DNA of 64,000 nucleotides from contig CAWJUU010000004.1 in NCBI GenBank assembly GCA_963846165.1, positions 8,143 to 72,142 of the forward strand. The letters run 5' to 3'. The stretch's first letter is position 1; the number at the start of each line of letters is the position of its first letter. Below the pieces are notes generated by a model. That model was not told the DNA's origin. It did no database searches and saw only the letters and a program-made list of their open reading frames with translations. Shown here one piece after another: positions 1,762-21,586 of this stretch. This DNA is from an uncultured Solirubrobacterales bacterium (GTDB lineage Bacteria > Actinomycetota > Thermoleophilia > Solirubrobacterales > 70-9). The translations under genes and the position numbers were made by a program.

Positions 1762-2890
1762 TCGCGGCCATTGCGAGCTCCCGCTCGAGGGCCTCGAATA
1801 TCGGTTCGACGCGATACCTGCCGCTGACAGTGCGGGCGCCCTCGCGCAAGGTCTCCCGCAGCTCGGGATCCTCGACCAGCGAGGCCATCGCAGCTCCGAA
1901 CGCTCGCGAGTCACCAGGCGATACCAGGATCCCGTTGACGCCCGTCTCGACGATCTCAGGGACACCGCCGACCGAGGTGGCGATGACCGGCGTCCCCGCG
2001 GCCAGTGCCTCGACGGCCGCGTGGGGGAAGTTCTCGAACTTGCTTGGCAGGATCGCGGCATCGGCGGCGCGCAGCCACTCGATCGCCGCGGCGCGGGGAA
2101 GCGCCCCCTTCAGCGAGATTCGCTCGCCGACGCCGCTCTTCGCGATCATCCGGATCAGATCTTCGCGCTCAGGGCCGTCGCCGATCACGACGAGTGACGC
2201 GTCAGGGACCGCACCCAGAGCCGTTATCGCCAGCGGCAGGTTCTTCGCGTCGACGAGGCGGCCCACGAAGACGAACGTGGGGAACCGGATCCCCAGCCGC
2301 CCGCGCAGCTCGTCCCTCGAGGTGAGTCGATCAATGCGCGGTGCAGGATTGGGAACGACGGATATCCGGTCGGCTGGGAGCCCCCAACCGCATGCGATGT
2401 CGGCGAAGAAGCGGCTCGGAATGACCACGCGCGAAGCCCTCGAAAGGGTGAGCCGCCTCAACCATTTGAGAGCGCGCACGGAGCTCTGGGTCTGGCGCCC
2501 CTGGAACTCCTCCAGCGTGCCGGAAAAGACCCCGAGCGAGCGCGCGCGGTCGTAGGCGGGATCATTGACCAGCTTGAGCACGAGCGGCACGCGGTGGAGA
2601 ATCGACGCGAGCGCACTCCTTGCGTACATGCCGGTCGCGTAGATCACGTCCGCTCGCCTCGCGGCCGCGATAACGGCCATTGCTCCAGCGGGCAGCCGGA
2701 TTAGCAGTTGCCGGTCACTTCGCGACATCGTCAGCGGAAATCCCGGATCCAGCGCCCCGGCCTTGCGGGCGGTGGTGACGGCGCGCACCTGATGACCACG
2801 ATCGATAAGGAACTTGCCGAACTCCGGGCCGTGGGAGGCCGGCCCGCCGACCTCGGGTGGCCAGATCCCGGAGACGATCAGGACCCTCAT
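1751..2890 (-). CDS. glycosyltransferase family 4
   Basis: MRVLIVSGIWPPEVGGPASH N-terminus. SKFENFPHAAVEALAAGTPVIATSVGGVPEIVETGVNG motif. Confidence 0.85.
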   Translation of the reverse strand: MRVLIVSGIWPPEVGGPASHGPEFGKFLIDRGHQVRAVTTARKAGALDPGFPLTMSRSDRQLLIRLPAGAMAVIAAARRADVIYATGMYARSALASILHRVPLVLKLVNDPAYDRARSLGVFSGTLEEFQGRQTQSSVRALKWLRRLTLSRASRVVIPSRFFADIACGWGLPADRISVVPNPAPRIDRLTSRDELRGRLGIRFPTFVFVGRLVDAKNLPLAITALGAVPDASLVVIGDGPEREDLIRMIAKSGVGERISLKGALPRAAAIEWLRAADAAILPSKFENFPHAAVEALAAGTPVIATSVGGVPEIVETGVNGILVSPGDSRAFGAAMASLVEDPELRETLREGARTVSGRYRVEPIFEALERELAMAAIRR

Positions 2891-2940
2891 GGCCGGCAGA
2901 ACCCCGCCCTCGCCTAGACTCGGACCCTCTCCTCACCGGG

Positions 2941-3839
2941 ATGATCATGACCAGTCAGCCGTCAAGAGCGCTCTCCAGAACGGCCCCCCAAGCCGAGCCG
3001 AGGGGCCCGGACGTGATTGGCATCGGCGCCCAGCGAACCGGATCGTCGTGGATGTATGCGTGCATGTATGAGCATCCCCAGATCTGCATGCCGCGAAAGG
3101 AGATCAACTTCTTCAGCCGCGAGCGCAACTGGAGTCGAGGCTTCGAGTGGTACGAGGGCATCTTCGCGGAGTGTCCGGCGACCGCGGTTTGCGGTGAGTT
3201 CTCCACCTCCTACCTGCCGGACCCCGAGACTCCGCGGCGCATCCACGATCGCTACCCGGATGTGCGCCTGATCGTCTCTCTCAGGCACCCGGCGGAGCGG
3301 GCGTACTCGAGCTACCTCAACGACATCCTCGCCGGTGTGGTGTCGCCGAAGCAGGGCTTCCCGGAGGCGCTCGACGCCCATCCGGAGTACATCGAAGGCA
3401 GCCGATACGGCCACCATCTGAGCAACTTCCTCGAACTGTTCTGCCGCGATCAGATCCTGGTCTCGATGTTCGACGAAGCGCGCCGGGATCCGCTTGCCAC
3501 CGTTCGGCAGATCTACCGGTTCCTCGACGTCGACCCGGAGTTCCGGCCACGATGCTCGACCGCCCGGTCGGCATCGGTCGCGTCCCCAGGTCGCAGGGCG
3601 CGGAACGCTCGATGCTCGAGCTCGCCGAGGCCTTTCGGCATCGACGGGCGCTGAGGCCCGTGTGGTGGATGGCCAAGAAGTCGGGAATCGGCGATCGCTT
3701 TCGGGCTCTCAACACGCGCGCCGTGAAATCGGGTGGGCTGGATCCAGAGGATCGCCGCGCCTTCATCTGCGAGCTCGAGCCTGACGTCAGGGTCCTGGAG
3801 GACCTGCTTGATCTCGAGCTGTCCGCCTGGCGCTCGTGA
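2941..3839 (+). pseudogene. PAPS-dependent sulfotransferase (ST1), one frameshift near 3545
   Basis: 5'-PSB loop GAQRTGSSW and 3'-PB LRHPAERAYSSY. The C-terminus continues in another frame (PMLDRPVGIGRVPRS...LELSAWRS). Confidence 0.75.
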
Positions 3840-4677
3840 GGCGCCCGACAGTCGCGCCGCGACCGCTGCATCGTCTTCCTCCACATCCCGAAGACCGGCG
3901 GGGTGACGCTGCGGCGGACGCTGAAGCGGAAGTACTCGCGGATCCTCTCCGAGGACGACCCTCGATCCCGGGTCGCTCCGAGGCGCTCGCGCGGGTGCCG
4001 CTGAGCGAGCGCGCGGCCGCGCAGGTCGTCGCCGGGCACCTGCACTACGGCGTCCACGAGTACATCCCGCGAGAATGTGACTACATCACCGTCCTCCGCG
4101 AGCCGGTCGCGCGGGTCGTCTCCGCCTACAACCACATCCTCGAACACCCCAAGCACGTACTGCACGCCGAGCTCGTGCGCTCCAGCGAGCCGCTGGAGAC
4201 CTTCCTGCGCATCGATCCGACCGTCGACAATCACCAGACCAGGATGGTCTCGGGCCGCGGTGGCGCTGAGCTCACAGCGAGGTCGCCGGAGCCCGGGGGC
4301 CCCGAAGCGCTCGAGGAGGCGAAGCGAAACCTCGAGCGGTTCCTAGTCGTCGGCGTAACGGAGCGCTTCGACGAGACGTTCATCCTGCTCCGGCGCGCGC
4401 TGGGATGGAGGCTGCCCTTCTACGTGACCGCCAACGTCGCCGGCGGGCGACGCCGGTCAGCGAGTCCGCCCGCGAGCTGATCCGCAAGCGCAACCAGCTC
4501 GACGTCGAGCTGTATCGGTTCGCCGACAGGCTGCTCTCCACCGCGATCGCCGAGCAGGGCCCCTCGTTTCCGCGCGAGGTCGCGGCGTTCAGGGCCCTGA
4601 ACCGGGTGCCCAACGTGGCGAACCGGCATCTGTCAGGGCGAGCCCGCCGGATCCTTCGGGCCGCGCTCCCGCGCTGA
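3836..4677 (+). pseudogene. sulfotransferase family 2-like (ST2), about three frameshifts (near 3855, 3958, 4445)
   Basis: GTG 3836 overlaps the ST1 stop. CIVFLHIPKTGGVTLRRTLKRKY lies in frame 0 and VLREPVARVVSAYNH in frame 2. The C-terminus (ELIRKRNQLDVELYRFA) is in frame 1. Confidence 0.7.
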
Positions 4678-4694
4678 GTCCGAGACAGCGAAGA

Positions 4695-5864
4695 GTGCGA
4701 GCCAAGCTCAGTCGGCCAAGCTGGCGCACTCTAGTATCGGCATCCTCGGTGGCCGAACTCCCAGGGATCCTCACGGGGCGCCGCATTGCTCACTTCGGCC
4801 ACCACGATCCGCACTATTCGCGCAATCGGATAATCGCGCGGGCGCTGTCGCTCTGTGGCGCAGAGGTCACGCAGATCGCGGATCGGCGGCCGTTCGTCCG
4901 GCGTACGCCGCGCCTGGTCGGCAAGGTCGCTCGCACTGAGGTCGACGCGATCGTGGTGGGATTTCCGTCCCATTCCGACGTGCCTGTCGCGCGCGCGATC
5001 GCGCGTGCGAAAGGCATCGCCACCGTGTTCGATCCGCTGACCTCGCGGTGGGAGAACGCCGTCATCGATCGCCGGGCGGTTGCGCCGCGGAGCATTCGCG
5101 CCACTCGCTACCGGCTGAACGACAGCGTGGCCTGTCGGCTCGCGGACCTGGTCTTGCTCGACACCCAGGCTCACATCGACTTCTTCTGCGAGGAATTCGG
5201 CCTCGCGCCGGCGAAGTTCCGGCGGGTCTGGGTGGGTTCCGACGAACAGATCATGAAGCCGCTCGAAGCGCCGCAACGCAGGGACGACTTCGTCGTCTTC
5301 TTCTACGGGAGCTTTCTCCCGTTCCAGGGAGCCGAGTACATCGTTCGGGCGGCTCGCCTGCTCGAGCAGCGACGGGAGCAGGTCCGTTTCGTGCTCTGTG
5401 GTGACGGACCGACATACAAGGCCGTGCGCGGCCTCAGCGAGCGACTCGCGGTCGGCAACGTGGAGTTCCTGCCGCCCTGCTCCGTCGAGCGACTGGCGGC
5501 TCTCATCGGCGCAAGCGACGTCTGCCTGGGGGTGTTCGGTACGAACGCGAAGGCGCTGCGCGTGATCCCCAACAAGGTGTTCGACGCGCTCGCGTGCCGG
5601 CGCCCCTTGATCACCGGCGACGCCCCCGCCGTCCGCGAGGCGCTGACGGACCAAGAGCACGTCTGGCTCTGTCGGTTCGGCGACGAAGAGGCGCTCGCGG
5701 ACGCGATCGCGACGCTGCGGCACGACCGGCGGCTGCGCGATCGACTCGCGCACAACGGGCACGAGCTGTTCCGCCGCCGCTTCTCGACTGCCGCGCTGGC
5801 TCCGGAGATCGGCAGGATCGTGCGCGGGGCGATCGATGGCTCAGGCGTCGCGAGGGCGGGCTGA
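4695..5864 (+). CDS. glycosyltransferase (GT4-like)
   Basis: Intact 389-aa ORF. Rossmann-type C-terminal half (FVVFFYGSFLPFQGAEYIV..VIPNKVFDALACRRPLITGD). Confidence 0.7.
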   Translation: MRAKLSRPSWRTLVSASSVAELPGILTGRRIAHFGHHDPHYSRNRIIARALSLCGAEVTQIADRRPFVRRTPRLVGKVARTEVDAIVVGFPSHSDVPVARAIARAKGIATVFDPLTSRWENAVIDRRAVAPRSIRATRYRLNDSVACRLADLVLLDTQAHIDFFCEEFGLAPAKFRRVWVGSDEQIMKPLEAPQRRDDFVVFFYGSFLPFQGAEYIVRAARLLEQRREQVRFVLCGDGPTYKAVRGLSERLAVGNVEFLPPCSVERLAALIGASDVCLGVFGTNAKALRVIPNKVFDALACRRPLITGDAPAVREALTDQEHVWLCRFGDEEALADAIATLRHDRRLRDRLAHNGHELFRRRFSTAALAPEIGRIVRGAIDGSGVARAG

Positions 5865-5910
5865 TGGGCAGCAGGGGGATGCTCGAACAGGCGTTGCCTG
5901 CGTGGCGCCG

Positions 5911-6993
5911 ATGATCGCGCCCGAGGCGAGACGGGGGCTCGGGGTCATCTTCATCTCCCAGGCGGTCGATTGCGACGATCCGGTCGTGCCGCACACCGTC
6001 CGGTGGATCGAGGCGCTGGCGCGCAAGCCGAGCATCGATCGGGTCGCCGTTCTGGCGCTGCGCACCGGCCGCTACGAGCTTCCGGGAAACGTCGCCGTCG
6101 ACCGGTTCGGCAGATCGAACAGGCTCGGCACGCTCGCGGCGTTCTATCGCGGCGTCGTGCGTTCACTGCGCCGCCGGCCCGACTTGATCTTCATCCACCA
6201 GGGCGGGCCCTATCCGGCGCTGCTGCTGCCCGTCAAGCTGTTGGCGAGGACCCCAGTCGTCCAGTGGAAGGCGCACGGTGTCATCACTCGCGCGATGGCG
6301 TTCTACGCCCGCCGGTGCGACGACCTGATCTTCACGGCCACGCGCGCGTCGTTTCCGATGCGGATGGCGAAGGTCCGCGTCGTGGGACACGGCATCGATA
6401 CACAAGCCTTCAGCAGCCACGCAGAGGAACCGGTGGGCGATCTGATCGCCGTCGGCCGAATAGCGCCGATCAAGTGCATCGAGGAGATGGTCAGGGCGGT
6501 CGACCACGCCAACCGGACGTACGGGACGGCGTACCGTCTCGACATCTACGGCCCGACGCTGCCGGGCGACGAGGGATACGCGGCGCGGGTCGACACGCTC
6601 ATCGACCGGCTCGGAGCGCGCGACCGCATCGCGCTCCACGGGCCCGTGCTGCACGCGGATCTGCCGCGCCTGCTAAACGCACACCGGGCCGCCCTGAACT
6701 TCTCCAACCATCGCGCAATCGACAAGTCCGCGCTCGAGGCCATGGCATGTGGCCTTCCGGTGATCTCCACGAACGAGTCCGTAGCCGAGATCATGCCGAG
6801 CGGTCTCGAGCCTGTCCTGATCACCGACGCGGAGAACGAAGAAGCCCAAGCGAAGGCGATCCATGGGGTGCTGCGACAGGAGCGCACCGAGATCGCAGCG
6901 CTGGGCGAACGGATGCGCGCCGTGGTTGTCGCCGATCACAGCATCGACCGGCTCTTCGACCGGATCCTGGAAGACGTCCGGACGCTGCTGTGA
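5911..6993 (+). CDS. glycosyltransferase (GT1/GT4 superfamily)
   Basis: ATG 5911 (MIAPEARRGLGVIFISQ). IDKSALEAMACGLPVISTNES motif. An alternative start at 5836 is possible. Confidence 0.75.
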   Translation: MIAPEARRGLGVIFISQAVDCDDPVVPHTVRWIEALARKPSIDRVAVLALRTGRYELPGNVAVDRFGRSNRLGTLAAFYRGVVRSLRRRPDLIFIHQGGPYPALLLPVKLLARTPVVQWKAHGVITRAMAFYARRCDDLIFTATRASFPMRMAKVRVVGHGIDTQAFSSHAEEPVGDLIAVGRIAPIKCIEEMVRAVDHANRTYGTAYRLDIYGPTLPGDEGYAARVDTLIDRLGARDRIALHGPVLHADLPRLLNAHRAALNFSNHRAIDKSALEAMACGLPVISTNESVAEIMPSGLEPVLITDAENEEAQAKAIHGVLRQERTEIAALGERMRAVVVADHSIDRLFDRILEDVRTLL

Positions 6994-7814
6994 GCTCGCG
7001 CTGGAAGCAAGGCATCAGGAACACGCTGGTGAGGGCGGGCGGCGCAGCCGTCGCCGTCCGCGGCCCGAAGGCGGGCAAGCGTGCGCTCGCGTTCCACGAA
7101 GTGCCCGACCCCGCGCGGTTCGCGGAGTTCCTCGACCGGGTTCTTGCCGAGTACGACGTCCTTGCGCTGCAGGACTGGCTCACGGCACCTCCGGCCGACC
7201 GGACTCAGCTCACCCTGACCTTCGACGACGGATACGCGTCGTGGCACGAGTTCGTCGCGCCCCTGCTCGAGGAACGCGGCCTGCCGGCCGTGTTCTTCGT
7301 GAGCTCGGGCCTGGTGGGCTTGCGCGGAAGCGAGGCGCGGGAGTTCGCCCGCACCCGCCTTCGCCGCACCCAGGAGCTCACGTTCATCGGCGCGCGTGAG
7401 CTCGAGGACCTCGTGCGACATCCCCGATTCGAGATCGGGGGCCACACCGTTACACACGCCGATCTCGGACAGATCACCGACCCGGACATCGCCCGCGCCG
7501 AGATCGCCGGCGACCAGGCGTGGCTGGAGGACCTGGTGGGCGCCCCGGTGCGCTGGTTCGCGTACCCGTTCGGAAACCACGCGAACGTCGCGTCGACGGC
7601 TCGGTCGCTCGTGGAGGCGCTCGGCATGTCGGCGGCGTTCACCCTGATTCCGGGCTGGTGGGATCCCGGTAAGGGGGACAGGTTCCTGATCGGACGCGAC
7701 GGGATCGACCCAGCGCTTCCGTACGCCGTCTGGCGCGCCTGGCTGCGCGGTGGCTATGACCGCTTGTTCTCGGTCAAGACGGCCGCCACGAGCTTGGTCC
7801 GCTCGAGCGGTTGA
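6990..7814 (+). CDS. polysaccharide deacetylase (CE4)
   Basis: GTG 6990 overlaps the upstream stop. LTLTFDDGYASW (TFDDG motif), IGGHTVTHADL (HxxxH), WFAYPFG. Confidence 0.8.
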   Translation: MSSRWKQGIRNTLVRAGGAAVAVRGPKAGKRALAFHEVPDPARFAEFLDRVLAEYDVLALQDWLTAPPADRTQLTLTFDDGYASWHEFVAPLLEERGLPAVFFVSSGLVGLRGSEAREFARTRLRRTQELTFIGARELEDLVRHPRFEIGGHTVTHADLGQITDPDIARAEIAGDQAWLEDLVGAPVRWFAYPFGNHANVASTARSLVEALGMSAAFTLIPGWWDPGKGDRFLIGRDGIDPALPYAVWRAWLRGGYDRLFSVKTAATSLVRSSG

Positions 7815-7904
7815 ACGCCTGCTAGCTGCGGTCGACTTACTTCGCCCGTCGTCCGGCAGGCTGAACGGGCTCACATTGGCGAGGGCGGATACGGAGAGTG
7901 CTGA

Positions 7905-7982
7905 TCGTCCGGCGGCTGCTTCATCTTCCCCAACGACGTGGCGTTCCTGGACGTCCTCAAGGACGCCGGATTCACTCGCTGA
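7905..7982 (+). pseudogene. short fragment homologous to the CE4-2 deacetylase segment at about 8764-8830
   Basis: The translation SSGGCFIFPNDVAFLDVLKDAGFTR* matches SSFIFPKNHLGFLDVLSDAGFTAY further downstream. Confidence 0.4.
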
Positions 7983-7983
7983 T

Positions 7984-8161
7984 CGCCGACAAGAAGAGCA
8001 CCAGCTGCAGGCACAGATGATCCACGAGTTGCTCAGCAGGCCCGAGACGGAGATCGCCCGGCTCGGAAAGCGGATGCGCGCGCTGGTGGTGTCGGAGCCA
8101 CAGCATCGAGCCGCTCTTCGACCGCATCCTGGAGCAGATCAGGACATTGGATCGGCGCTGA
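7984..8161 (+). pseudogene. C-terminal remnant of a glycosyltransferase paralogous to the gene at 5911-6993
   Basis: QEEHQLQAQMIHELLSRPETEIARLGKRMRALVVSE then (shifted) HSIEPLFDRILEQIRTLDRR*. This aligns to NEEAQAKAIHGVLRQERTEIAALGERMRAVVVADHSIDRLFDRILEDVRTLL*. Confidence 0.55.
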
Positions 8162-9149
8162 GGAAGGCCTTCACACGCATAAGCCGATCAAAATTCATAC
8201 GCCGGGCGGGCCGGCTACTGAAGACCGGGTCGACCCATGTTCCGGATTATCAGCGCTACCTGTCGCTCTTAAAGGCCGAACGGAGCTCATTTGCGGGTCG
8301 GACGTTCAACCTGACGATCGACTTTGAGCTCGGCTGGTCACGCGCACGGCGCGACGGCGGATCGACCACCCGTCAGGAGGCCTTGCAACGGGCTCAGCGC
8401 GCCCGCGCCGCCTTCCCGGCGTTACTCGAGGCGAGCGATCGGTACGCGGTGCCGATCACCTTTGCCGTAGTCGGTCATCTCGCGATGGCCCGCTGCGAGC
8501 ACCCGCCAACGCCCGCCTTCGCACCGTATTGGCTGGGAGAGGATTGGTTCGCGATCGATCCGAGCACGGACGGGGATAGGGATCCCGCCTATTACGCGGC
8601 AGACGCGATCGAGGCGATCGCCCGCGGCGATGTGGCTCATGAGATCGGAAGTCACGGCTTTTCTCACGTCGACCTCGGAGATGACGCTACGACGCGCGAA
8701 ATCGCCACCTATGAAATCGTCGAATCGAGAAACGCTCTGCGAAGATACGACCCGGCCATTTCGAGCTTCATCTTTCCCAAGAACCATCTCGGATTCCTGG
8801 ACGTTCTCAGTGACGCCGGATTCACCGCCTATCGCTCGGGCGCCTACCTGCCATCGATCGAGATGAACATGGCATGTGGCGCTTTCCCAAGGGCCTGTGG
8901 CTCTCGCCGCAGGCATGCAGTCCTGACGAGGTGCTCGCTCTTGCAGATGTCGCCAAGGCCCAGCAACAGCTCATCCACACGTGGTGCCACCTTCACGAGT
9001 TTGCCTCGGCGAAGGAGGCGGGCGCGTACTTCTCCGCGCTCTTTCGGGGATTGGCCGATCGGCGTCAGCGCGGCCTGACGGTGCGAACCATGCGCGATGT
9101 GGTTAGAGAGGAAGCAGCGGCCCTCTCCACGAGGGAGACGCCTTTGCCC
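8017..9149 (+). pseudogene. polysaccharide deacetylase family protein (CE4-2); uncertain start, frameshift near 8860
   Basis: NLTIDFELGW, PITFAVVGHLA and HEIGSHGFSHVDL motifs. There is no ATG/GTG/TTG between the GT remnant and the domain, so the only in-frame ATG (8017) lies inside the remnant. The C-terminus is in frame 0 and runs without a stop into the next gene. Confidence 0.55.
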
Positions 9150-10077
9150 ATGAGCCCTGACCCTGCGTCCGCGTCGCGCGGCGACTCTCCGATCTTCGTG
9201 GTGGGGGTCGCGCATTCAGGGACCACGATCCTTCATCGGATGCTGGCCTACCACCCCGCGCTCGCTTGGTTCTCTCAGTTCTCGCTTCGAGGCGGCGAGA
9301 TCCGGGGTCGGTCGCGCATCCCGGGAGCCGGCCTTATGGACAGGCAGCTTCGGTCGATCCCTCATCGCTGGCAGAAGCAGAAACCCAGCTTCCGACGGCC
9401 GCCTCTGACGCCTCGCCCGGGCGAGGCGTCGGACGATTTGGGCCGACCTCATCAATGATGGCCGCGAGTTCGCCTCGGTGGAGGAACTCGACGAATCGAC
9501 GCCGGGTTCCGGCGGCCCGAGGAGCGCCAGCGCGACGATCGACGGGGACCGGCTGCGATCATGTCTGGCGGCGTTCAGCGAGCAATTCGAGGGCCGACGA
9601 GTGCTGGCCAAGCTCCCTCCTCCCGACTTCTCCCGCTATCTCGAGCCGGTCCAGACGGCCTTTCCCGGCGCCCTGTTCGTGCACATAGTCCGCGATGGGC
9701 GGCCCGTTTCATTCAGCCTGCGGCCGAAGTTCGAACCGAGGCTGGATGCTCGCAGCGCGCTGCTCGCCGCGGCCCGCCACTGGGTGGCCACGCTTGATCG
9801 AGTCCATGCAACTCGCGAGACCGACCTGCTCGAGGTGCGCTACGAGGATCTCTGTGAGGACGTGCACGGGGTCATCCGGACGATTCTCGACCGCGCCGCC
9901 CTCGACCCGGAGGCGTTTCCCTTCGGGCGATGCCCATCACGGCTCTCGCAGACGAACTCGCGCTGGGTGGACCAGGCGACGCCCCGGGAGCTCGAGGAAG
10001 TGTCCGAGATTCAGCGCGAGCAGCTGAACCGGTTCGGGTATCCGCTGGTGTTGGCGGCCGCCGGCAGCTTTTCGTGA
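9150..10077 (+). pseudogene. sulfotransferase (ST3), one frameshift near 9432
   Basis: IFVVGVAHSGTTILHRMLAYHP (5'-PSB) and VHIVRDGRPVSFS (3'-PB). It is a paralogue of the gene at 10085-10888 along its whole length. Confidence 0.7.
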
Positions 10078-10084
10078 GCGGCTG

Positions 10085-10888
10085 ATGCAACCTGAGCTCT
10101 CACCCGTCCTCGTGTGCGGGGCCCCGCATTCGGGGACGACGATCCTCTACCGCATGCTCGCCTATCACCCGGATCTGACGTGGTTCTCGCAACTCTCGCT
10201 GGGTAACGGCGAGATCCCCGGCCGCCGCACCCGCCCAGGGGCCGGCCTTCTCGACGTCAAGCTTCGGCGCGTTCCCCACTCGTGGCGGAAGGAAGAGTCC
10301 AGGCTGAGGCGACTCGTGGTCCCACTCCCCAGTGACGAGACGACGATCTGGGAGTACCTGCTGGAGGACGAGAGCACGGACGCCGAACGTGTGCGCTCGT
10401 GCCTGGCGTCGTTCAGCGAGCGCTTCGGCGGTCGCCGGATAGTCGCAAAATGGCCCGAGTTCCACCGATTCCTCGACCTCCTTCACGCTTCCTGTCCCGA
10501 TGCGCTCTATGTCCACATCGTCCGCGATGGCCGCCCGCTCGCCTTCAGCATCCGGGAGAAGTTCGAGCGTCGTCGGCTCGAGCCTCACGACGCCCTCCTC
10601 GCCGCCGCCCATCACTGGGTCGAAGTGCTCGAGAGCGTCCGCGCCGCACGGGGGATCGATCTGCTCGAGGTCCGCTACGAGGACTTCTGCGAGGACGTCC
10701 ATGGGGTGATTCGGAACATCCTCAGCCGCGGCCGCCTGGACGCCGAGCGGTTTCCCTTCCGGCGCTGCCCGCCGACGCTCTCGGCCCGAACCAACACGCG
10801 GTGGATCGACGAAGCTTCGCCTGAGGAGCTCACCCAGGTGTCCGAGATTCAGCACGACCACCTCGTCGAGTACGGGTACTCGGCGTGA
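10085..10888 (+). CDS. sulfotransferase (ST4)
   Basis: Intact 267-aa ORF with VLVCGAPHSGTTILYRMLAYHP and VHIVRDGRPLAFS. Confidence 0.8.
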   Translation: MQPELSPVLVCGAPHSGTTILYRMLAYHPDLTWFSQLSLGNGEIPGRRTRPGAGLLDVKLRRVPHSWRKEESRLRRLVVPLPSDETTIWEYLLEDESTDAERVRSCLASFSERFGGRRIVAKWPEFHRFLDLLHASCPDALYVHIVRDGRPLAFSIREKFERRRLEPHDALLAAAHHWVEVLESVRAARGIDLLEVRYEDFCEDVHGVIRNILSRGRLDAERFPFRRCPPTLSARTNTRWIDEASPEELTQVSEIQHDHLVEYGYSA

Positions 10889-12419
10889 GCGCATGGTTGT
10901 CCTCCGCTCCGGGTGCGGAGGTCGCTGACGTCATCCGCGCGATCGCAGCCAGGGCGCCGATGAACAGGGCGGGGACTACCGTGTCAACCTGGCCACCGAA
11001 GAGGGGATTGTCGTTGCTCCAGATGATCACGAGCAGCAGGCCGAGGCTCATCGTCCACGCCTGGGGCCAGAGTTCGTGCTCTCGGCCGATGCGGCGAAGG
11101 AGCGCTCGCACTCGCAGGGCTACGATGACGATCAGCGCGACGAGGAGGGCGAACCCGACGAGGCCCAGGTCGGCGAGGATCTGAACGTAGGTGTTGTGGA
11201 CGGAGCCCGGCTTCACGTCCGGGTAGAAGATCGGACGGGCATCGGGAAACCGGCGCCGCACCTCGATTGCAATTTCCCGATCGCCGATCACTTGCGGCGC
11301 GCTGCTCTGCCGCCAGCCCGCCCCGACGATGGGATTGCGCTCGAAGATCTCGAGCCCCGCCGCCCCCAGGATGATGCGCTGGGCCGCGGAGCTGTTCCTG
11401 AACGACTCCGAGGACGGGGACACCTCCGGCCGCAGGAACTGAACCGCGCTGAAGACCAGGACCCCGGCCAGAGCCACCGCGAGCACCGCGCGCGTGGCGC
11501 GGTGTGGGGCGGCAGCGGGGGACCTGCTCGCGAGGCTCGCTCCGAGCGCGAGAACGAACCCGGTCGCCACGAGTGAGGCCACGGACTTTGTGAGCAGGAG
11601 GCCCAGCAGTCCGGTCGCCCCCAGCGCAACTCTGTAGGGGGCCTTCGACGTCACTGCGCCGAATGCGGCGATCAGCAGCAGTAGACCCGAGACCAAGCCG
11701 AGCGCGTTCGGGCCCAAGGAACCTCCAGATCGGTCCGTCAGCAAGCTTCCTCCGCTGAGCGCGCCGTCGGCGACCGCGACCACACCCGCGGCGGCTACGG
11801 CGCCCAGGATCAGACGGATGTCGCCCTTCGTCTCGATCAGGCTCGCGGCGAGCCACGCGAGTGAGGCCGTCTGGACCAGGCGCAGCCAAGAGACGAAGGC
11901 GCTTCCAACAGCGCCCGAGTCGGAGGTCGCGACCGTGACGAGCGTCAACCCTGCGTAGGCGAGAAAAACAATCGCGATGGCCTGTCCGAAAGCAATCCGC
12001 GGCCGTTCGTCTGGCACGCTCCGCCCCGCGCGCTCGACGACTCCCACGAGCCACCAGGCGACCGCTCCCAGGTAGAAGACGTCGGCCAGATTCACGTCCA
12101 CGTCCCCGAATTGGCCGAACACCGGGAGAAAGCCGGTGATCGTCAGCGCTCCGATCGCCGCCAGGCAGGTCTGCGGGCCGGTCATGATCAAGGCGGCGCA
12201 CACCAGGCCCCCGACGGTCAGCACCACGGCCGAATCCAGGGCCAGGCCGAATCCGTTGAACCGGGCAACCGCCCAGCCGAGGACGAGGGCAAGCGCGGCC
12301 AAGCCGGCGAGCAGGGGCAGATCGGCCGAGGCGCCCCCGGGCCACGGCGTTCGTGAGCGAGTCACGATCGGCGAGGGCCGGGGCGTCAGCTCGGGTGCTT
12401 GTCCGCCACGAGCTTTCAC
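10830..12419 (-). CDS. wzy: O-antigen ligase/polymerase family membrane protein (Wzy-like)
   Basis: More than 10 predicted TM helices. Wzy_C-like SVHNTYVQILADLGLVGFALLVALIV. Start uncertain. Confidence 0.7.
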   Translation of the reverse strand: MKARGGQAPELTPRPSPIVTRSRTPWPGGASADLPLLAGLAALALVLGWAVARFNGFGLALDSAVVLTVGGLVCAALIMTGPQTCLAAIGALTITGFLPVFGQFGDVDVNLADVFYLGAVAWWLVGVVERAGRSVPDERPRIAFGQAIAIVFLAYAGLTLVTVATSDSGAVGSAFVSWLRLVQTASLAWLAASLIETKGDIRLILGAVAAAGVVAVADGALSGGSLLTDRSGGSLGPNALGLVSGLLLLIAAFGAVTSKAPYRVALGATGLLGLLLTKSVASLVATGFVLALGASLASRSPAAAPHRATRAVLAVALAGVLVFSAVQFLRPEVSPSSESFRNSSAAQRIILGAAGLEIFERNPIVGAGWRQSSAPQVIGDREIAIEVRRRFPDARPIFYPDVKPGSVHNTYVQILADLGLVGFALLVALIVIVALRVRALLRRIGREHELWPQAWTMSLGLLLVIIWSNDNPLFGGQVDTVVPALFIGALAAIARMTSATSAPGAEDNHALTPSTRTRRGGRAESRTPG

Positions 12420-12532
12420 CGAGTCGTGACGATAGTCGGCCGGTGCCTGGGATTCCTGGCTCCTACGCGGCGCGCGCGATGCAGTGCAATTCGGCCTTGC
12501 CGCGCCCTGCTCGCCAAGCTAGGGCACCATCG

Positions 12533-13975
12533 TCAGTAGCCTGCGCTCAGATTTCCGGGTCGCAGTCCGGGTGCTCTTTTCTCCGGGGGCAGGCGTTCCG
12601 CTTCGTCGAGAAGCCGGTTCGCCACGAAGTACAGGGGCACTTGGGTCGCAACGTACGTGAATGAGACCGCGATCGCGGCCCCCGTGGCTTCGAAGCGGGC
12701 CAGGAGCGCGATCCCAGAAATCAGGAGGACCGCGAACGCCACCTCGTATGCGGTCTGTAGGCCGGGACGGCCGATTGCCGGGAAAAACATCTTCGCCCAG
12801 GCCAGGGCCAGGTGGACGACCGTCGCGACCAGGAGGATGCGCGCGGGGCCAATCGCGTCCTCGAATTGATCCGAGTAGAAGGCTGGCAGAAGCACGGGGA
12901 GGAGGAACCATCCGGCAACGGCTGCCGGCAGCGCGATCGCCAACCCAATCCGTGTTGCGCCCCTGATGGTCGTGCGAAGACCGTCGATATCGCCTTCAGA
13001 CGCCTGGCGCGCCTGTTCGGGAAACAGCAAGAGCCGCAGTGGCGCGGTGGCGAGGCTGGCAACGGTGAACGGAAACAAGGCCACCGAGAAGATGCCTACC
13101 GTTTGCGCACCCGCCAGCGATCCGAGAATCACCGGCGCCGCCGACCGCTGCGCACCCTGGACGCTCGTTGCGACGCTCGAGAAGATGCCGAATGAGCGCA
13201 GCTTTCCCAGCCACTCGCGTGCGCCCTCTTGCGGCTCCGCGCGATCCCACTTGCTCCATCCGACGCGCCAGGCGAGCCCACCTTGAATCAAGGCCCCGGC
13301 GAAAGCAGCAGCCGCATACGCGACCAAGACCTCCTGCGGACCCCCGACGCCAACCGCCCAGAGCACTCCGATGAGGCGCAGGACGCTGGTCCCGAACATC
13401 ACCCAAGCGCGCAGTTCGCGGCGCTTTGCCAGCAGCAGCACCGCTCCTGTCGTCCCGTCGACAGTTTGGGCGAAAGCGATCACGACGGCGATTCGGACCA
13501 GAGATGCATCGGCCTCCCCGCTGCCGAGGAGGTCGCTCAGCGGGCCGGCGAGACCCAGAATCAACGCCCCGACCGCCAGGCCGATCCCCAGGTCCACCGC
13601 GAACGCGATCCGCAGCAGCGTTCGCAAGCCGCCGAAGTCCTTCGCCGTGAGCGCGCGATAGCCATGATGGACGACCGCCTGCTCCAGGGTCAGGTCGAGG
13701 AGAGTCGCGATCAGGGTGACAACGGCGATCGCCAGCACGACGGATCCGTAACCGTCCGGGCCGAGCTCCCGGGCAGCCACGATGCCTGTGATCAGCGCGA
13801 CTGCCGCGGCTGCCCAGATCGCGATCGAGGCGGACCCGGCGCGTCGCCACCACGTCCTATCCGTCCAAAAGGCAGGCTCTTGAACGTCTGGCCAGCCAAG
13901 CTCTGAGCCGGCGCTCAGGCCCCCTCCGGGATCTTCGACCGGTGGGCGGTCTTTCGGAACCCGTGGTCGCCTCAC
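12533..13975 (-). CDS. wzx: polysaccharide/oligosaccharide flippase (Wzx, MOP superfamily)
   Basis: 480 aa and polytopic, with the typical lipopolysaccharide-biosynthesis-protein architecture. It sits next to wzy. Confidence 0.7.
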   Translation of the reverse strand: MRRPRVPKDRPPVEDPGGGLSAGSELGWPDVQEPAFWTDRTWWRRAGSASIAIWAAAAVALITGIVAARELGPDGYGSVVLAIAVVTLIATLLDLTLEQAVVHHGYRALTAKDFGGLRTLLRIAFAVDLGIGLAVGALILGLAGPLSDLLGSGEADASLVRIAVVIAFAQTVDGTTGAVLLLAKRRELRAWVMFGTSVLRLIGVLWAVGVGGPQEVLVAYAAAAFAGALIQGGLAWRVGWSKWDRAEPQEGAREWLGKLRSFGIFSSVATSVQGAQRSAAPVILGSLAGAQTVGIFSVALFPFTVASLATAPLRLLLFPEQARQASEGDIDGLRTTIRGATRIGLAIALPAAVAGWFLLPVLLPAFYSDQFEDAIGPARILLVATVVHLALAWAKMFFPAIGRPGLQTAYEVAFAVLLISGIALLARFEATGAAIAVSFTYVATQVPLYFVANRLLDEAERLPPEKRAPGLRPGNLSAGY

Positions 13976-14080
13976 GCCCGAGCGACGGGGCAGGCTCTGA
14001 CTCGTCCGCGCACGCTATCCACCGGGCTGGGGGGACCGGCTCCAGGAGGCAGTGTCACTCCCCTACTATGCCGAAGTTCG

Positions 14081-15637
14081 GTGTCGATCACGGCAATACT
14101 GGGGGATGGCACGGTGCCGGAACGGCCTGCAGCAGACCCAAATCGCCCACTGAGCGTGGTCGGCCTTCTTCGCCGGCGCTTTCTCGTGATCCTGATTCCG
14201 GCGCTCCTCGTCCCAGGGGTGGCGCTTGCGTTGACCCTCCAGCAGGAGAAGCAATACGAGGCTTCGACCTCCCTGCTCTTCCGCGACTCGGGGCTCGGCT
14301 CCACGGTGCTCGCCTCCGCGGACCCCGATCGTGAGGCGGCGACCAACCTGCGCCTGCTGCAGCTCGACGCGCTCGAGAGCAAGGTCAATGCCGACCGTAA
14401 TCATCCGTTCCCGGGCGACGTCGACGTGGTCACCGAAGCGGAGTCCAATCTGGCGACGATCACCGCGACCGATACCAAGCCCAGGCGCGCCGCCCGCATG
14501 GCGGATGCGTTCGCCCAGGAGTACATAGCGCTCCGCGAGAAAGCAGTTGACCGCGAGATCGAGCTGGAGCGAACGGCGGTTAACGAAGAGCTTTCACAGA
14601 TTCCGCTCACGACCCAACCCGGGGGGGCCCAGCTGGGGCAGGGAGGACTGAAGCGCCGGGGCCGGCGGGCGGAGGCGCTCAAAGAGCGCCTGAAGGAACT
14701 CACCATCGCCGGGGTGGCCCCAATCGGCGTCCGCCAGGTCCAGCGGGCCGAGGTCCCTTCGTCCGCAGTATCGCCGGACCCGGTCCGCAACACGGTGGTC
14801 GGTGCCATCCTCGGCCTCGCGCTTGGGATCGGGTTCGCGATCTGGCTCGAGCGGCGTGACACACGCATGAGGGATGCTCGCGATCTCGAGGCCGCGTTTG
14901 GGCAGCCGATCCTCGGCCGGATTCCCCAGAGCCGCAAGCTTGCCAAGTCGAGCCCGGGCACCGGCGCCCTCGCATCACCGGAGGAGGAGGCCTTCCGCAC
15001 GCTGCGGGCCAACCTTCGGCACGTTCTGCAAGAAGGGGCACGATCGGTGCTGGTGACTTCCGCCAATCCGGGCGAGGGCAAGACGACCGTCGCCTGGAAT
15101 CTGGCCCGCGCCGAAGCGGCGTCTGGAGCCAAGGTGCTGATGGTTGAGGCGGACATGCGGCGTCCGGTTCTCGCCCGCAGCCTCGGCGCTGTCGGGGCGC
15201 CGGGGCTGAGTCAGCTGCTGACTGCGGAAGGCCGCCTCGAGGACTTGGTCCAGTCGATCGGGTTCGAGGAAAGTGAGAACGGCAACGCTTCGACGGGGAG
15301 GGTCGATGTGTTGCTCGCGGGGACTCCACCCTCCAATCCGGCGGAGCTGCTGGACTCGGACCGGATGCAGGCCGTGCTCGAAACGATGCCCGAAGCCTAC
15401 GACCTGGTCGTGCTCGACACTCCGCCTGCCTCCGTCGTCTCGGACGTGATCCCGATGTTCGAGTCAGTTGGCGGCGTGGTGGTCGTCGGCCGTTTGGGTA
15501 TGACCACATACGAGTCGATCAGAGAGCTTCGCGACCAGCTCGAGAATCTCGACGCGCCGTTGCTTGGGGTGGTCGTCAACTCCGATCTGACGAACGTCAA
15601 TGCCGCGAAGTACTCCTACGCGGCTACGACGAGTTGA
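14081..15637 (+). CDS. polysaccharide co-polymerase (Wzz-like) fused to a BY-kinase
   Basis: N-terminal TM + Wzz region, second TM, then Walker A SANPGEGKTTVAWNLA, A' VLMVEADMRRP and B DLVVLDTPP. The C-terminal tail has a short KYSY. Confidence 0.85.
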   Translation: MSITAILGDGTVPERPAADPNRPLSVVGLLRRRFLVILIPALLVPGVALALTLQQEKQYEASTSLLFRDSGLGSTVLASADPDREAATNLRLLQLDALESKVNADRNHPFPGDVDVVTEAESNLATITATDTKPRRAARMADAFAQEYIALREKAVDREIELERTAVNEELSQIPLTTQPGGAQLGQGGLKRRGRRAEALKERLKELTIAGVAPIGVRQVQRAEVPSSAVSPDPVRNTVVGAILGLALGIGFAIWLERRDTRMRDARDLEAAFGQPILGRIPQSRKLAKSSPGTGALASPEEEAFRTLRANLRHVLQEGARSVLVTSANPGEGKTTVAWNLARAEAASGAKVLMVEADMRRPVLARSLGAVGAPGLSQLLTAEGRLEDLVQSIGFEESENGNASTGRVDVLLAGTPPSNPAELLDSDRMQAVLETMPEAYDLVVLDTPPASVVSDVIPMFESVGGVVVVGRLGMTTYESIRELRDQLENLDAPLLGVVVNSDLTNVNAAKYSYAATTS

Positions 15638-15700
15638 GCCGCGAAGCTGGAATTCAACAGTTCGCGCTTTCGCGGGTTACGAGCCGGGCGCCTCGCTCGG

Positions 15701-16168
15701 TTAGGGCTCGAACGGCGGTGCCTCACCCCAGCCCCAGCGGGGAACGGGCGCGTGCTCGGCCACCTCGGCGTCGGCCTGCGAGTTGGCGAGCGCGAGGCGC
15801 GTGGCCCATTCGACGTAGGCGACGAATGCCGAGCGGAACTCCGGGTCGTCGGGGAGTGAGGCGTCGTCGGCCGCGAGGCTCATCAGCGAGGCGAAGCGGA
15901 ACCGCTGCTCTGGGGTGATCTCGAGCCCGCGATGGTGGGCGAGCATGCTCTCGTAGCCGCCGAGCTCGTCGCTGTAGCGCGTCGGGCCGCCGAAGACCTC
16001 GCACCACCACGCGGTGACGTGAGCGCGGTGTTCCTCGTGGACGCCGCCGGGGAACAGCGGCGCCAGCAGATCGTCGCCCTCGACCCGGTCGTAGAAGGCG
16101 TCGATCAGCCGTCGCAGGGCGGCCTCACCCCCCGCCCACTCGTACAGTGTCGGCGGCGGGGCGGCCAC
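15701..16168 (-). CDS. glbO: group II truncated haemoglobin (trHbO-like)
   Basis: TLYEWAGGEAALRRLIDAFYDRV...HVTAWWCEVFGGPTRYS...MLAHHRGLEI. Confidence 0.8.
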   Translation of the reverse strand: MAAPPPTLYEWAGGEAALRRLIDAFYDRVEGDDLLAPLFPGGVHEEHRAHVTAWWCEVFGGPTRYSDELGGYESMLAHHRGLEITPEQRFRFASLMSLAADDASLPDDPEFRSAFVAYVEWATRLALANSQADAEVAEHAPVPRWGWGEAPPFEP

Positions 16169-16169
16169 C

Positions 16170-17639
16170 TCAGACGTTGATCGCCACGTACTTGGTCTCG
16201 AGGAACTCGTCGATCCCCTCGTTGCCGCCCTCGCGGCCGATCCCCGACTGCTTGACGCCGCCGAACGGCGCGCCGGCGTTCGAGACCATGCCCTGGTTGA
16301 GGCCGATCATGCCCGGTCTCGAGGCCCTCGCAGACTCGAATCGCGCGCTTGATGTCGCGGGTGAAGACGTAGGCGACGAGCCCGTACTCGGTGTCGTTGG
16401 CGGCGGCGATCGCCTCCTCCTCGGAGCCGAAGGAAGCCACCGGTGCGACCGGCCCGAAGATCTCCTCGTCGAGCACTCGGGCGCCCTCGGTGACGCCGCC
16501 GAGCACCGTCGGCTCGAAGAAGTAGCCGGCGCCGTCGACAGCGGAGCCGCCGACGAGCACGTTCGCGCCCTTGGCCTTCGCGTCGTCGACCAGCTCGGCG
16601 ACCTTCTGCCGCTGCGTCGGAGTCGATCAGCGGGCCGATCTCGACGCCGTCCTCGGTCCCGCGGCCCAGCTTGAGCTTGCCCATCCGCTCGGCCAGCCGC
16701 TCGGCGAACTCCTCGGCGAGCGAGTCGGCGACGTGGAAGCGGTTCGCCGACGTGCAGGCCTCGCCGATGTTGCGCATCTTGGCCAGCATCGCGCCGTCGA
16801 GCGCCGCGTCGAGGTCGGCGTCGTCGAAGATCAGGAACGGGGCGTTGCCGCCGAGCTCCATCGAGACCTTGAGCACGTTGGGGGCCGCCTGGGCGATCAG
16901 CTTGCGCCCGACCTCGGTCGAGCCGGTGAACGAGAGCTTGCGCAGCCGCGGGTCGCCGATGATCGGCTCCGAGATCGCACTCGACGAGGAGCCGGTGATC
17001 ACGTTCAGCACCCCCGGCGGCAGCCCGGCCTCGGTGAGCAGCTCGGCGAGCGCCAGCATCGAGAGCGGCGTCTGCTGGGCGGGCTTGACCACCATCGTGC
17101 AGCCGGCGGCGATCGCCGGGCCGATCTTCCGCGTCCCCATCGCGTTGGGGAAGTTCCACGGCGTGATGAAGTAGCTGGGGCCGATCGGCTGCCGCATCAC
17201 CAGCACCCGCGACGCGGCGTTGCCGGCGATCTTGTAGTAGCCGTCGATCCGCAGCGCCTCGCCCGAGAACCAGCGAAAGAACTCGGCCGCGTAGATGATC
17301 TCGGCCTTCGACTCGGCCACCGACTTGCCCATCTCGAGCGTCATCAGCAGCGCCAGCTCGTCGGCGCGCTCGCTCAGCAGCTCGAACGCGCGGTAGAGGA
17401 TCTCCGAGCGCTCGTTCGGCGGGCTGGTGGCCCAGGCGGGCTGCGCCTCGCAGGCGGCATCGAGCGCCGCCGTGGCGTCGCTCGGGCGTCGCGTCGGCGA
17501 CCTCGCTGAAGGCCTCGCCGGTGGCGGGGTCCTCGACCGCGAGCGTCGCGCCGCCGGTCGCGTCGCGCCACTCGCCGCCGATGAAGAGCTGTCTCGGCGC
17601 CGCCTCGACGGCCGATCGTTCCTGCGTTTCGGTGCTCAT
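16170..17639 (-). pseudogene. gabD: succinate-semialdehyde dehydrogenase, three frameshifts (near 17485, 16625, 16310)
   Basis: The N-terminus ([15 protein letters not shown]), core ([37 protein letters not shown]), EEIFGPV and C-terminus ([13 protein letters not shown]) lie in three different frames in order. Confidence 0.8.
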
Positions 17640-17752
17640 CCGACCTCCCTTTCGATCTCGGTCGCAGCGTAGCGCCCGGCCTCGGGATGCTGCGGGGAGC
17701 GCGACTTCCGCACCCCCTAGGCTGTTGAACCCTCAGGGGGGAACGCGGACCA

Positions 17753-19897: not shown

Positions 19898-21578
19898 CTA
19901 CTGCTTCGGGATCACGACCTGCGCGCAAGGCGGCGCGCCCGGCACGGAGCTGTCGCCCGTGTCCAGGACCGGCGCGTCGTTCGCGTCGAGCAGGTCGACC
20001 GTGAGCCGGCTCTTGGTCACCTCGACCTGTGCGTAGCTGAACTGGTCGATCGCGGCGCACTGCATCCCGACTCCGTCCGGCGGCTGGCGGCTTGAGGAAC
20101 GCGTCGTGGACCAGCGGGCCGCGCGGCCGGATTGCCGGCCGCGTCGCTGATCTCCAGCGCAGTAGCTGGCGGTGGCGATCGGGCCGGTGGTCACGTCGAG
20201 GATCCCGGAGTTCTGCACGCCGGCGCCGCCGAGCGTGTTGAAGCGGGCGTCGTTGACCAGGTTGCCGTGCACGTCGGTGGTCAGGAAGACGGCGTTCTTG
20301 ACGTTCTTCTGCAGGTAGCGCGAGCACCGCCTGGCGCTCGGCCTCGTAGCCCTCCCAGCGGTCGTAGGGCGTCGCGTAGTACTGCTGGATCGGGACCTCG
20401 TTGAAGATCACCTTGAAGGTCGCGTCCGAGTTCGCGATCGCCTTCTTGAACTTCTGCAGCTGCTTCGCGCCGAGCATCGTCCGGCTCGGGTCGTTGATCG
20501 CCTCGACGCAGCCGGGCGGCGGCGGGTTGGCGAGCGGCGGGACGATGAGCGCGAAGACGTCGCGGGTGCTCTGCGGCGCGGTCGGCGCGAGGTCGGGGTT
20601 GCCGCTGCCGGGCGGGTTGTCGCAGACGCCCGGGTAGTCGGCGCCGGTGGCTGCGGAACGAGCGCTCGTCGAGGAAGAAGATCTCCAGGTTCTTGCCCCA
20701 GCGCGACCGTGCGGTAGATCCCGTTCTTCTTCTTGTAGGTGATCGGGTTGTAGTCGGTGAACGCGTCGACGCCGCGCTTGTAGAGCTTCTCGCCGTCGAT
20801 GTTGACGTCGCCGACGCCGAGCGGGAAGACGTCCTCGCCGAGCGCGCGAAGTCGTTGATGAACTCGTGGTCGTCCCAGTGCGCGTAGTAGGCGGCCGAGC
20901 CGCGCGCCTTCGCCCACGGCTTCATCGCCAGGTTCGTCTGGTAGGCGGCCCACTTCTGCTTCGTCGTCAGCGCGACGTCGGCGAGGCCGTACCCGGGCAC
21001 CTCGGTGTCGGAGTAGATCGTGTCGCCCAGCAGCACGTTGAAGTCGTTCTTCTGCTGCGCGGATCGCGTTCCAGACCTCGAAGTTGTTCCAGTACGGGGT
21101 CGTCTCGCCCGGGCTGCGGCCGCGCGTCCTGGTCGCCGGAGAGCGCGAAGCGGATCGTCTGCTTGGACTTCGAGCTCGGGCGCGGTGGTGAACTTGCCGG
21201 TGTCGCTCTTGCGCGCCGCCGTCCATGCAGAAGCGGTACTTGTAGTCGGTGTCGGGCTCGAGCTTCTTGGCCTTCTTCTGGACCGTGTTGTCGTTCGAGC
21301 TCTTCGCCTTCGCCGTCAGGTCGCCGGCCTCGGGGTCGCAGCTTGCCGAACCCGCCCCTGTCGGTGAGCTGAACCTCGACCTCACCGCTCTTCTTGGCCT
21401 TCGCCCAGAGGATCGCCGAGCTCGAGGTGACGTCGCCGGAGGAGACGCCGAGCTCGAACCCCTTCGCCTTCGCGGAGGCGCCGGGCGCGGCAACGAGCGC
21501 GCCGGCGACGGCGAGGCTCGAGACAAGACCGATCAGGCGGGTGCGCTTCCCTGCTAGCACTGCGGCGCAGCCTAACAT
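19898..21578 (-). pseudogene. phoD: PhoD-family alkaline phosphatase, about 12 frameshifts
   Basis: Signal peptide + GVSSGDVTSSSAILWAKA, LLGDTIYSD, YAHWDDHEFINDF, IFFLDERSFRS, FLTTDVHGN and a C-terminal QFSYAQVEVTKSRL. These are spread over three frames that must be spliced about 12 times. Confidence 0.8.
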
Positions 21579-21586
21579 GGCCGCCC

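Follow-up and report, generated by a model that had tools for sequence, protein, structure and literature searches.

An open frame across the join of a deacetylase gene and a sulfotransferase gene in an uncultured Solirubrobacterales bacterium

Do any bacteria have an enzyme like the animal N-deacetylase/N-sulfotransferases (NDSTs), in which a metal-dependent deacetylase barrel and a sulfotransferase that uses 3'-phosphoadenosine 5'-phosphosulfate (PAPS) act on the same polysaccharide (PMC10864358)? The question is raised by 64,000 nucleotides of DNA (70% G+C) from an uncultured Solirubrobacterales bacterium (contig CAWJUU010000004.1, positions 8,143 to 72,142, of assembly GCA_963846165.1). 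We will call this whole stretch the window. In the window, a putative carbohydrate esterase family 4 (CE4) deacetylase gene, DA2, lies directly before a sulfotransferase gene, ST3, and a first-pass annotation proposed that their catalytic domains share one reading frame and form an NDST-like fused polypeptide. We think it likely that DA2 and ST3 are separate genes within a sulfated-polysaccharide cluster of the Wzx/Wzy type, and that DA2 is decaying in this strain.

The shared frame and the breaks in both genes

The stop-free frame from the C-terminus of the deacetylase into the N-terminus of the sulfotransferase is present, as an open reading frame (ORF) at 8874-9458. Frame 0 is open from 8874 until it meets a stop at 9456-9458. 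Its sequence is ...TMRDVVREEAAALSTRETPLP-MSPDPASASRGDSPIFVVGVAHSGTTILHRML..., in which ST3 begins with the ATG at 9150; across the join the ORF reads ...TMRDVVREEAAALSTRETPLPMSPDPASASRGDSPIFVVGVAHSGTT..., and the junction peptide expected from a shared frame is …STRETPLPMSPDPAS…. But the two catalytic domains do not share this frame. DA2 has its catalytic part (8179-8853) in frame 1, which terminates at 9076-9078. ST3 is in frame 0 to 9428 and, owing to an extra base at about 9430, in frame 1 from 9430; since ST3 leaves frame 0 there, that frame stops at 9456-9458. The largest ORF over the join has just 194 amino acids: the last 92 of DA2, the first 93 of ST3, and then an out-of-frame tail. 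Neither catalytic domain is complete in it.

Open frames as long as this one are abundant throughout the window, and the first-pass annotation had rightly cautioned that stop-free frames are common at this G+C content. The continuity of the frame does not exceed chance expectation, because the window is 70% G+C, and it hinges on two bases by which the window differs from the closest orthologue that is intact. The stop-free frame does exist, but it is incidental.

That orthologue, P0003, is 94% identical to DA2, has 325 amino acids, and ends in TGA. It is encoded on a soil contig from JGI (L003) that aligns to 8099-9310. In a pairwise DNA alignment to L003, the window has an additional GA and C within 9111-9118 (net three bases), and some 20 bases ahead of the ST3 ATG it has another two additional bases, CA (9128-9129). 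The CA puts the tail of DA2 into the frame of ST3, so the TGA at 9158-9160 is missed. Without the CA, DA2 reads ...LSEGDAFA... and stops at this TGA, eleven bases into ST3, as in L003.

DA2 has two other lesions. The frame shift that had been placed near 8860 corresponds to one base missing between 8852 and 8854, as compared to two relatives: contig X2 has an additional T after 8852, L003 has an additional C after 8853, and either restores the frame. At the start site, the window has ATA. The start codon is TTG in L003 and ATG in L004 (a 29-kb contig that is syntenic with the window) and in contigs X4 and X5, both of which have G instead of A at 8181. So, relative to intact close orthologues, the disabling lesions of DA2 are the ATA start, one base lost near 8853, and two bases added before the stop.

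ST3 is interrupted by the extra base at about 9430. This base is absent from contig X3, from L004, and from P0037, which is a stand-alone ST3 orthologue of 308 amino acids; both P0037 and L004 read GEAWTIW. P0037 starts at the methionine of the window's ATG at 9150; in the N-terminal 93 residues, where the two align, it is 94% identical to ST3. (The middle third of P0037 is read out of frame.) Programmed frameshifting or read-through can be rejected as the explanation for the breaks in these genes, as the shifts are absent from the relatives, whose frames are uninterrupted.

Separate genes in the relatives

In the relatives, the two genes are separate. The next-closest orthologue of DA2, P0004 (73% identical), is encoded on L004, where the order is a glycosyltransferase, the deacetylase (314 amino acids), a sulfotransferase (308 amino acids), another sulfotransferase (271 amino acids), and then Wzy and Wzx on the opposite strand. 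The stop codon of the deacetylase and the start codon of the sulfotransferase overlap in L004 as ATGA. In L003, the TGA of the deacetylase sits just past the start position of ST3. The ST3 of the window keeps its own ribosome-binding site, GAGGGAG, and its ATG. A stop codon and a separate ribosome-binding site between the domains are what the first-pass annotation had named as refuting its fusion, and the stops of the orthologues and this site provide them. Thus, the two genes do directly abut, as had been noted, and the deacetylase-then-sulfotransferase order with an overlapping stop and start is also found in L004. This layout is typical of translational coupling, and the conserved pair is probably co-translated.

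To look for fused proteins, we used the junction ORF as the query for an exhaustive phmmer (HMMER) search of 1.84 billion representative proteins, since any relative with both domains in one protein would align over the whole query and so top the list. None of the 127 matches is a CE4-sulfotransferase fusion. Instead, the tail of DA2 matches the C-terminus of proteins of ~245-323 amino acids, or the head of ST3 matches the N-terminus of proteins of ~280-308 amino acids. A few alignments run across the join and some of the matched proteins are long, but all of these are TPR-sulfotransferases that lack a CE4 domain. Like the junction ORF, these carry Sulfotransfer_3, and they are the only proteins that align across the join. 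But their N-terminal part consists of TPR repeats rather than a deacetylase, and their alignments cross the join by extending into alanine-rich sequence.

The homologues of DA2 tell the same story. A word-seeded search with the 637-residue "repaired fusion" returned just two proteins, as its candidate selection was swamped, while the repaired DA2 alone gave 36 homologues. All 36 are stand-alone proteins (245-373 amino acids), none has a sulfotransferase domain, and they end a few residues past a conserved TMRDVV helix. In contrast to the single polypeptide of NDSTs, then, the window has a 194-residue ORF, the orthologues in L003 and L004 have stop codons between the domains, and no fusion was found among the 36 homologues or the 127 matches. 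These results do not support the proposal of an NDST-like fused polypeptide, and both genes are broken in the window.

The domain identities that had been proposed for the two genes hold up. For DA2, Pfam's Polysacc_deac_1 (PF01522) matches at 8149-8865, although weakly (24.4 bits versus a cutoff of 23.1), and about half of the homologues carry PF01522. DA2 does belong to CE4, as it scores above the gathering threshold and the family has a CE4 fold. The AlphaFold model of P0004 is a CE4-type barrel with a predicted local distance difference test (pLDDT) score of 90, and its nearest structures by Foldseek are bacterial deacetylases (3rxz, 3qbu, Bc1960, and ArnD), with E-values down to 1e-9 and template modeling (TM) scores of about 0.55-0.6. 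The family has the motifs TIDFE, HEIxSHGFSH, and CHLHE, which contain conserved Asp/Glu and His residues, and all of the family-invariant residues are kept in the window. DA2 is thus a CE4-fold deacetylase of about 315-325 amino acids from an uncharacterised family. At curated cutoffs, no NCBIfam model matches either DA2 or the methyltransferase that is its usual partner (see below); there are only weak matches far below the cutoffs.

ST3 belongs to the PAPS-dependent sulfotransferases. Sulfotransfer_3 (PF13469) matches both of its halves (8.6e-7 for the N-terminal half and 1.6e-10 for the C-terminal half), including the 5'-phosphosulfate-binding loop (GVAHSGTT), as well as the paralogue that follows, ST4 (2.4e-21). 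The AlphaFold 2 model of ST4 (pLDDT 94.7) matches sulfotransferase structures, and the nearest folds are the sulfotransferase domains of olefin synthase and CurM, mycobacterial Stf9 and Stf1, and TPST1/2. The sulfotransferase domain of NDST1 ranks only 28-40 among these matches. Since the nearest solved structures are O-sulfotransferases (with Stf9 and Stf1 equally close), the modeled fold does not positively support N-sulfation, and a fold by itself would leave the specificity unsettled. ST4 had no significant hits in a sequence search of PDB, and neither ST3 nor ST4 matches any NCBIfam model. ST3-type proteins have an insertion of ~24 residues (GREFASVEEL...), kept at 9440-9520 of the window and 11240-11320 of L004, that is absent from ST4-type paralogues.

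Decay, assembly errors, or a young fusion

The region upstream of ST3 varies between strains. In contigs of related strains from soil and rhizosphere metagenomes, the sequence jumps from 7789 to 9126, from 7815 to 9125, or from 7824 to 9137, and one contig of 11.5 kb, L092, matches the window over 4734-7823 and resumes at 9126-15656. In all of these strains, another CE4 gene, DA1, is directly before ST3, and a 1.3-kb segment (7824-9125) with DA2 and some scars is absent. Conversely, L004 lacks 3856-7980 of the window, which includes ST2, two glycosyltransferase genes, and DA1. So there are three states: DA2 only (L004), DA1 only (most close relatives), and both (the window). DA1 and DA2 appear to be interchangeable or alternative CE4 genes immediately upstream of ST3, with turnover of cassettes. 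Because DA1 sits directly before ST3 in the other arrangement, a functional link between the deacetylase and the sulfotransferase is plausible. As to the quality of these contigs, L092 (from ENA) is ~90% identical to the window with ~1.4-3% gaps and has many fragmentary gene calls; it has the look of a long-read assembly, from a related strain, that was left uncorrected. L003 represents a further state, in which ST3 is decayed beside an intact DA2: at 1056-1364, which corresponds to 9150-9310 of the window, the ATG is lost and there are two one-base deletions. Homology to L003 ends at 9310, with unrelated sequence beyond, and a loose end in run X1 has the same breakpoint.

Rearrangement scars lie between DA1 and DA2 (Table 1). 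The 70-base piece is a duplicate from within DA2, and L003 665-735 matches it at 76% by blastn. It abuts the end of a glycosyltransferase gene whose body has been replaced and which is itself frameshifted near 8098. The database's gene call for the deacetylase (P0001; 8017-9078; 353 amino acids) begins within this remnant. The intact glycosyltransferase before DA1 is 62% identical to the glycosyltransferase of L004, but its position differs: it is part of the 3856-7980 cassette.

Table 1. Features on either side of the DA2-ST3 join (positions are in the window)
Feature	Positions	Strand	Basis
GT4 glycosyltransferase, intact	5836..6993	+	Pfam Glyco_trans_1_4/Glycos_transf_1
DA1, intact canonical CE4 polysaccharide deacetylase	6990..7814	+	PF01522, 4.9e-20
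Scar: 70-base copy of an internal piece of DA2 (FIFPNDVAFLDVLKDAGFTR*; compare 8763-8833)	7918..7986	+	blastn and translation
Remnant: last ~60 codons of an L004-type glycosyltransferase	7981..8160	+	tblastn; L004 aligns from 9783 onwards
Start-codon site of DA2, ATA	8179..8181	+	Alignments
DA2, N-terminal and catalytic part, frame 1	8179..8853	+	Pfam, homologues, AlphaFold 2 model of orthologue, Foldseek
DA2, C-terminal part, frame 0	8853..9127	+	Alignment to P0003 and P0004; tblastn of residues 220-314 of the L004 deacetylase
Open frame of 194 amino acids across the join	8874..9458	+	ORF list
Indel cluster relative to L003	9111..9129	+	Pairwise DNA alignment; contig joints and loose ends; L092 sequence
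ST3 ribosome-binding site GAGGGAG (9131-9137) and ATG (9150-9152)	9131..9152	+	Sequence; start of P0037
ST3, Sulfotransfer_3 PAPS sulfotransferase, 308 amino acids when corrected	9150..10077	+	Pfam; tblastn
Native stop of DA2, TGA, frame 2	9158..9160	+	L003 tail ...GCCTTTGCCCAAAAGTCCTGA aligned to the window
ST4, intact paralogue of ST3 (59% identical), orthologue of the second L004 sulfotransferase	10085..10888	+	Pfam, 2.4e-21; alignment
Wzy-type polymerase (-), Wzx-type flippase (-), chain-length regulator/tyrosine kinase-like ATPase (+)	10830..15637		Pfam; L004 synteny

We propose that a cassette with DA1 may have inserted upstream, which would have made DA2 redundant, and that DA2, already lost from sister strains, would now be decaying in the window's strain. 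Assembly errors may instead account for some of the single-base breaks. Several points favor real decay: the start codon was lost by a substitution, the indels lie outside of homopolymer runs, DA1 makes DA2 redundant, and DA2 is deleted in sister strains.

Three points weigh against decaying, separate genes. First, the ratio of nonsynonymous to synonymous substitution rates (dN/dS) between the DA2 of the window and that of L003 is 0.24 on both sides of the frameshift, so any inactivation of DA2 is recent, or else not real. Second, the CA at 9128-9129 is probably a genuine allele, because the same motif, CCACGAGGG, is found in independent short-read contigs of relatives, including those that lack DA2; if the single-base frameshifts are assembly errors, then the strain would carry a continuous DA2-ST3 frame. 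Third, no indexed run contains the 31-mers over the three lesions, which is a weak negative, as three words were sampled for each; the source reads were not found among the indexed runs, the best of which shares 20% of words.

Frameshifts are indeed frequent in the window, as the first-pass annotation had warned. Besides DA2 and ST3, no fewer than five genes within 1-22000 have lost their frame: one that is GINT1_N-like (near 258), ST1 at about 3540, ST2 at about 3955, an aldehyde dehydrogenase gene that is spread over three frames (16108-17640), and a PhoD phosphatase gene, also over three frames (19900-21600). This suggests either an indel-prone assembly or widespread decay, and caution is warranted for any feature of the window that depends on a single-base frame. 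(We also ran a Viterbi scan of reading frames using GC content by codon position, but only as a pointer to frame switches, and we give it no evidential use.)

These frameshifts bear on the possibility of a genuine and very young fusion. If the shifts at 8853 and 9430 (and perhaps the ATA) were errors while the CA was real, then the strain would encode a polypeptide of ~640-690 amino acids with active CE4 and sulfotransferase domains. Error-like frameshifts affect at least five more genes (among them those for aldehyde dehydrogenase and PhoD), which fits with this idea, as do the presence of the CA in relatives' contigs, the intact family-invariant residues, and the dN/dS of 0.24. The linker between the last helix of DA2 and the first strand of ST3 would be about 25-30 amino acids. 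But the start codon was lost by a substitution, and a random error at exactly that site is unlikely; ST3 retains its own Shine-Dalgarno sequence and ATG; and there is no fused homologue among the 36 family members or the 127 matches. Also, DA2 is deleted in sister strains, DA1 provides a second CE4 gene, and the gene upstream of DA2 is a truncated remnant. We consider a young fusion unlikely.

Alternatively, all of the differences at the boundary, including the CA, could be assembly errors, so that in reality the two genes would be intact, separate, and overlapping, as they are in L003 and L004. This would account for the high density of frameshifts in the window, for three indel events within 19 bases (9111-9129), and for the window's junction words being in no indexed run. 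However, CCACGAGGG, with its CA, is in the relatives' independent contigs, the indels are outside of homopolymer runs, and the ATA start is a substitution. We view this scenario as quite improbable. Whether the breaks are errors or decay, there is no conserved bifunctional enzyme: only if the single-base shifts are errors and the CA is real would there be a fused ORF, and it would be strain-specific.

Lastly, the contig could be chimeric, if the assembler joined a DA2-bearing variant to a variant with DA1 before ST3 near 9126; then the DA2/ST3 junction would exist in no cell. The homology to relatives without DA2 does begin at 9125-9137, right at the indel cluster, and no contig in four metagenomes spans 9110-9126. 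On the other hand, L003 has DA2 followed by ST3 sequence, so the arrangement is natural, and the left side (DA1, scars, and DA2) would require a second chimeric join. A chimera seems very unlikely. Separate genes with a decaying DA2 remains our preferred explanation.

Partner genes and comparison to known systems

What do DA2 and ST3 do together? Given the Wzx/Wzy genes and several sulfotransferases, the locus is a Wzx/Wzy-type cluster for a heavily sulfated polysaccharide. Two further sulfotransferases, from other Pfam families, are encoded upstream (2857-3654 and 3836-4480), so that this one cluster has four sulfotransferase genes from three Pfam families: one Sulfotransfer_1-like, one Gal-3-O-sulfotransferase-like, and two Sulfotransfer_3 (2857-4480 and 9150-10888).

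We compared this setting to other loci with members of either family. (Single-protein scans of genome contigs with DA2, and of metagenome contigs with ST3, were empty, and alignment-based repeats found the loci.) Of eight distant loci, seven have a gene for an orthologous S-adenosylmethionine (SAM) methyltransferase of ~277 amino acids immediately after the DA2-family gene. These methyltransferases are 42-49% identical to one another (loci L005, L007, L009, L011/L095, L093, L096, and L097), and they are found in Planctomycetota, Saccharibacteria, Parcubacteria, and unnamed metagenome bins. Only in the window's soil lineage is the partner of DA2 a sulfotransferase. The DA2-type family is rare and is scattered across phyla (Planctomycetota, Saccharibacteria, Parcubacteria, and Binatia). 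A distant relative, P0002 (31% identical over 80% of DA2), is encoded in L001/L002 at 2393-7122, and its neighbors include a heparinase II/III-like gene, a pectate-lyase-fold protein, and a low-molecular-weight phosphatase.

From the other side, we examined 80 metagenome loci that contain ST3/ST4-family genes. None of these has a DA2-type gene, and just five have a DA1-like CE4 gene nearby, so we reject the idea that ST3/ST4-family genes are obligately coupled to a deacetylase gene. In the closest of these loci (L014), the ST3/ST4-family gene is surrounded by other sulfotransferases.

Rhizobial Nod factors offer an analogy. The CE4 deacetylase NodB frees an amine, which the SAM methyltransferase NodS modifies, and NodH, a Sulfotransfer_3-type enzyme, sulfates the same glycan. 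NodH is an O-sulfotransferase. DA2-family genes are likewise paired with a methyltransferase elsewhere and with a sulfotransferase in the window, but there is no sequence orthology to the Nod proteins: the match to the NodB model is far below the cutoff, and the DA2 substrate would presumably be the repeat unit of a Wzx/Wzy system. By this analogy, it is a reasonable hypothesis that the DA2 family forms a module with exchangeable transferases, in the manner of NodB and NodS, in which the deacetylase would expose a group and the transferase (in the window, the sulfotransferase) would then modify that group. NodH is mentioned in PMC11625862.

More broadly, the best structural neighbors of the DA2 family are bacterial CE4 deacetylases (3rxz, HP0310/3qbu, PgdA, PdaC, ArnD, NodB, PgaB, and HfsH), which share its Asp/Glu and His motifs and occur in exopolysaccharide or cell-envelope loci. 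The DA2 family differs from these in that its Pfam scores are near the threshold, its first motif is TIDFE rather than TFDD, and the next gene usually encodes a methyltransferase.

The deacetylase of NDST1 is a (beta/alpha)7 barrel with a His-His-Asp metal site (PMC10864358). The model of the DA2 orthologue has the same class of fold, and ST4 has the sulfotransferase fold with the PAPS loop. But NDST1 is a distant structural match on both sides: for the deacetylase, it is match 37 in the Foldseek list (E = 3.8e-4, TM score of 0.49), and bacterial CE4 enzymes are much closer; for the sulfotransferase, the ranks were given above. Judging from the models, DA2 resembles the deacetylase of NDST1 only at the level of fold class. 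And while NDSTs are one polypeptide, the orthologues in the window's lineage are two genes, with no conserved fusion. It could still be that the pair is a bacterial counterpart of the NDST chemistry, separate in relatives and possibly brought into one frame here by a two-base insertion where stop and start overlap: DA2-family proteins would take an N-acetyl group off an amino sugar of the repeat unit, and the freed amine would be N-sulfated in the window's lineage or N-methylated in the many lineages where the partner is a SAM methyltransferase. We consider this unlikely.

Because active NDST is difficult to produce in bacteria, work is under way on artificial fusions (PMC13353177). A natural bacterial N-deacetylase/N-sulfotransferase would be of interest for the bioengineering of heparin, and it would be the first known architecture of this kind outside of animals. 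No evidence for a bifunctional NDST-like enzyme in bacteria emerges here, and the claimed fusion should not be used for annotation or enzyme mining without confirmation at the read level. What remains is an ordinary, uncharacterised deacetylase-sulfotransferase pair in a variable exopolysaccharide cluster, on a contig whose quality with respect to indels is doubtful. Worth keeping is the uncharacterised CE4-like family, whose downstream partner differs: distant phyla have a methyltransferase there, and this soil lineage has a sulfotransferase. And the four sulfotransferases of the cluster suggest that this uncultured soil bacterium makes a multiply sulfated polysaccharide.

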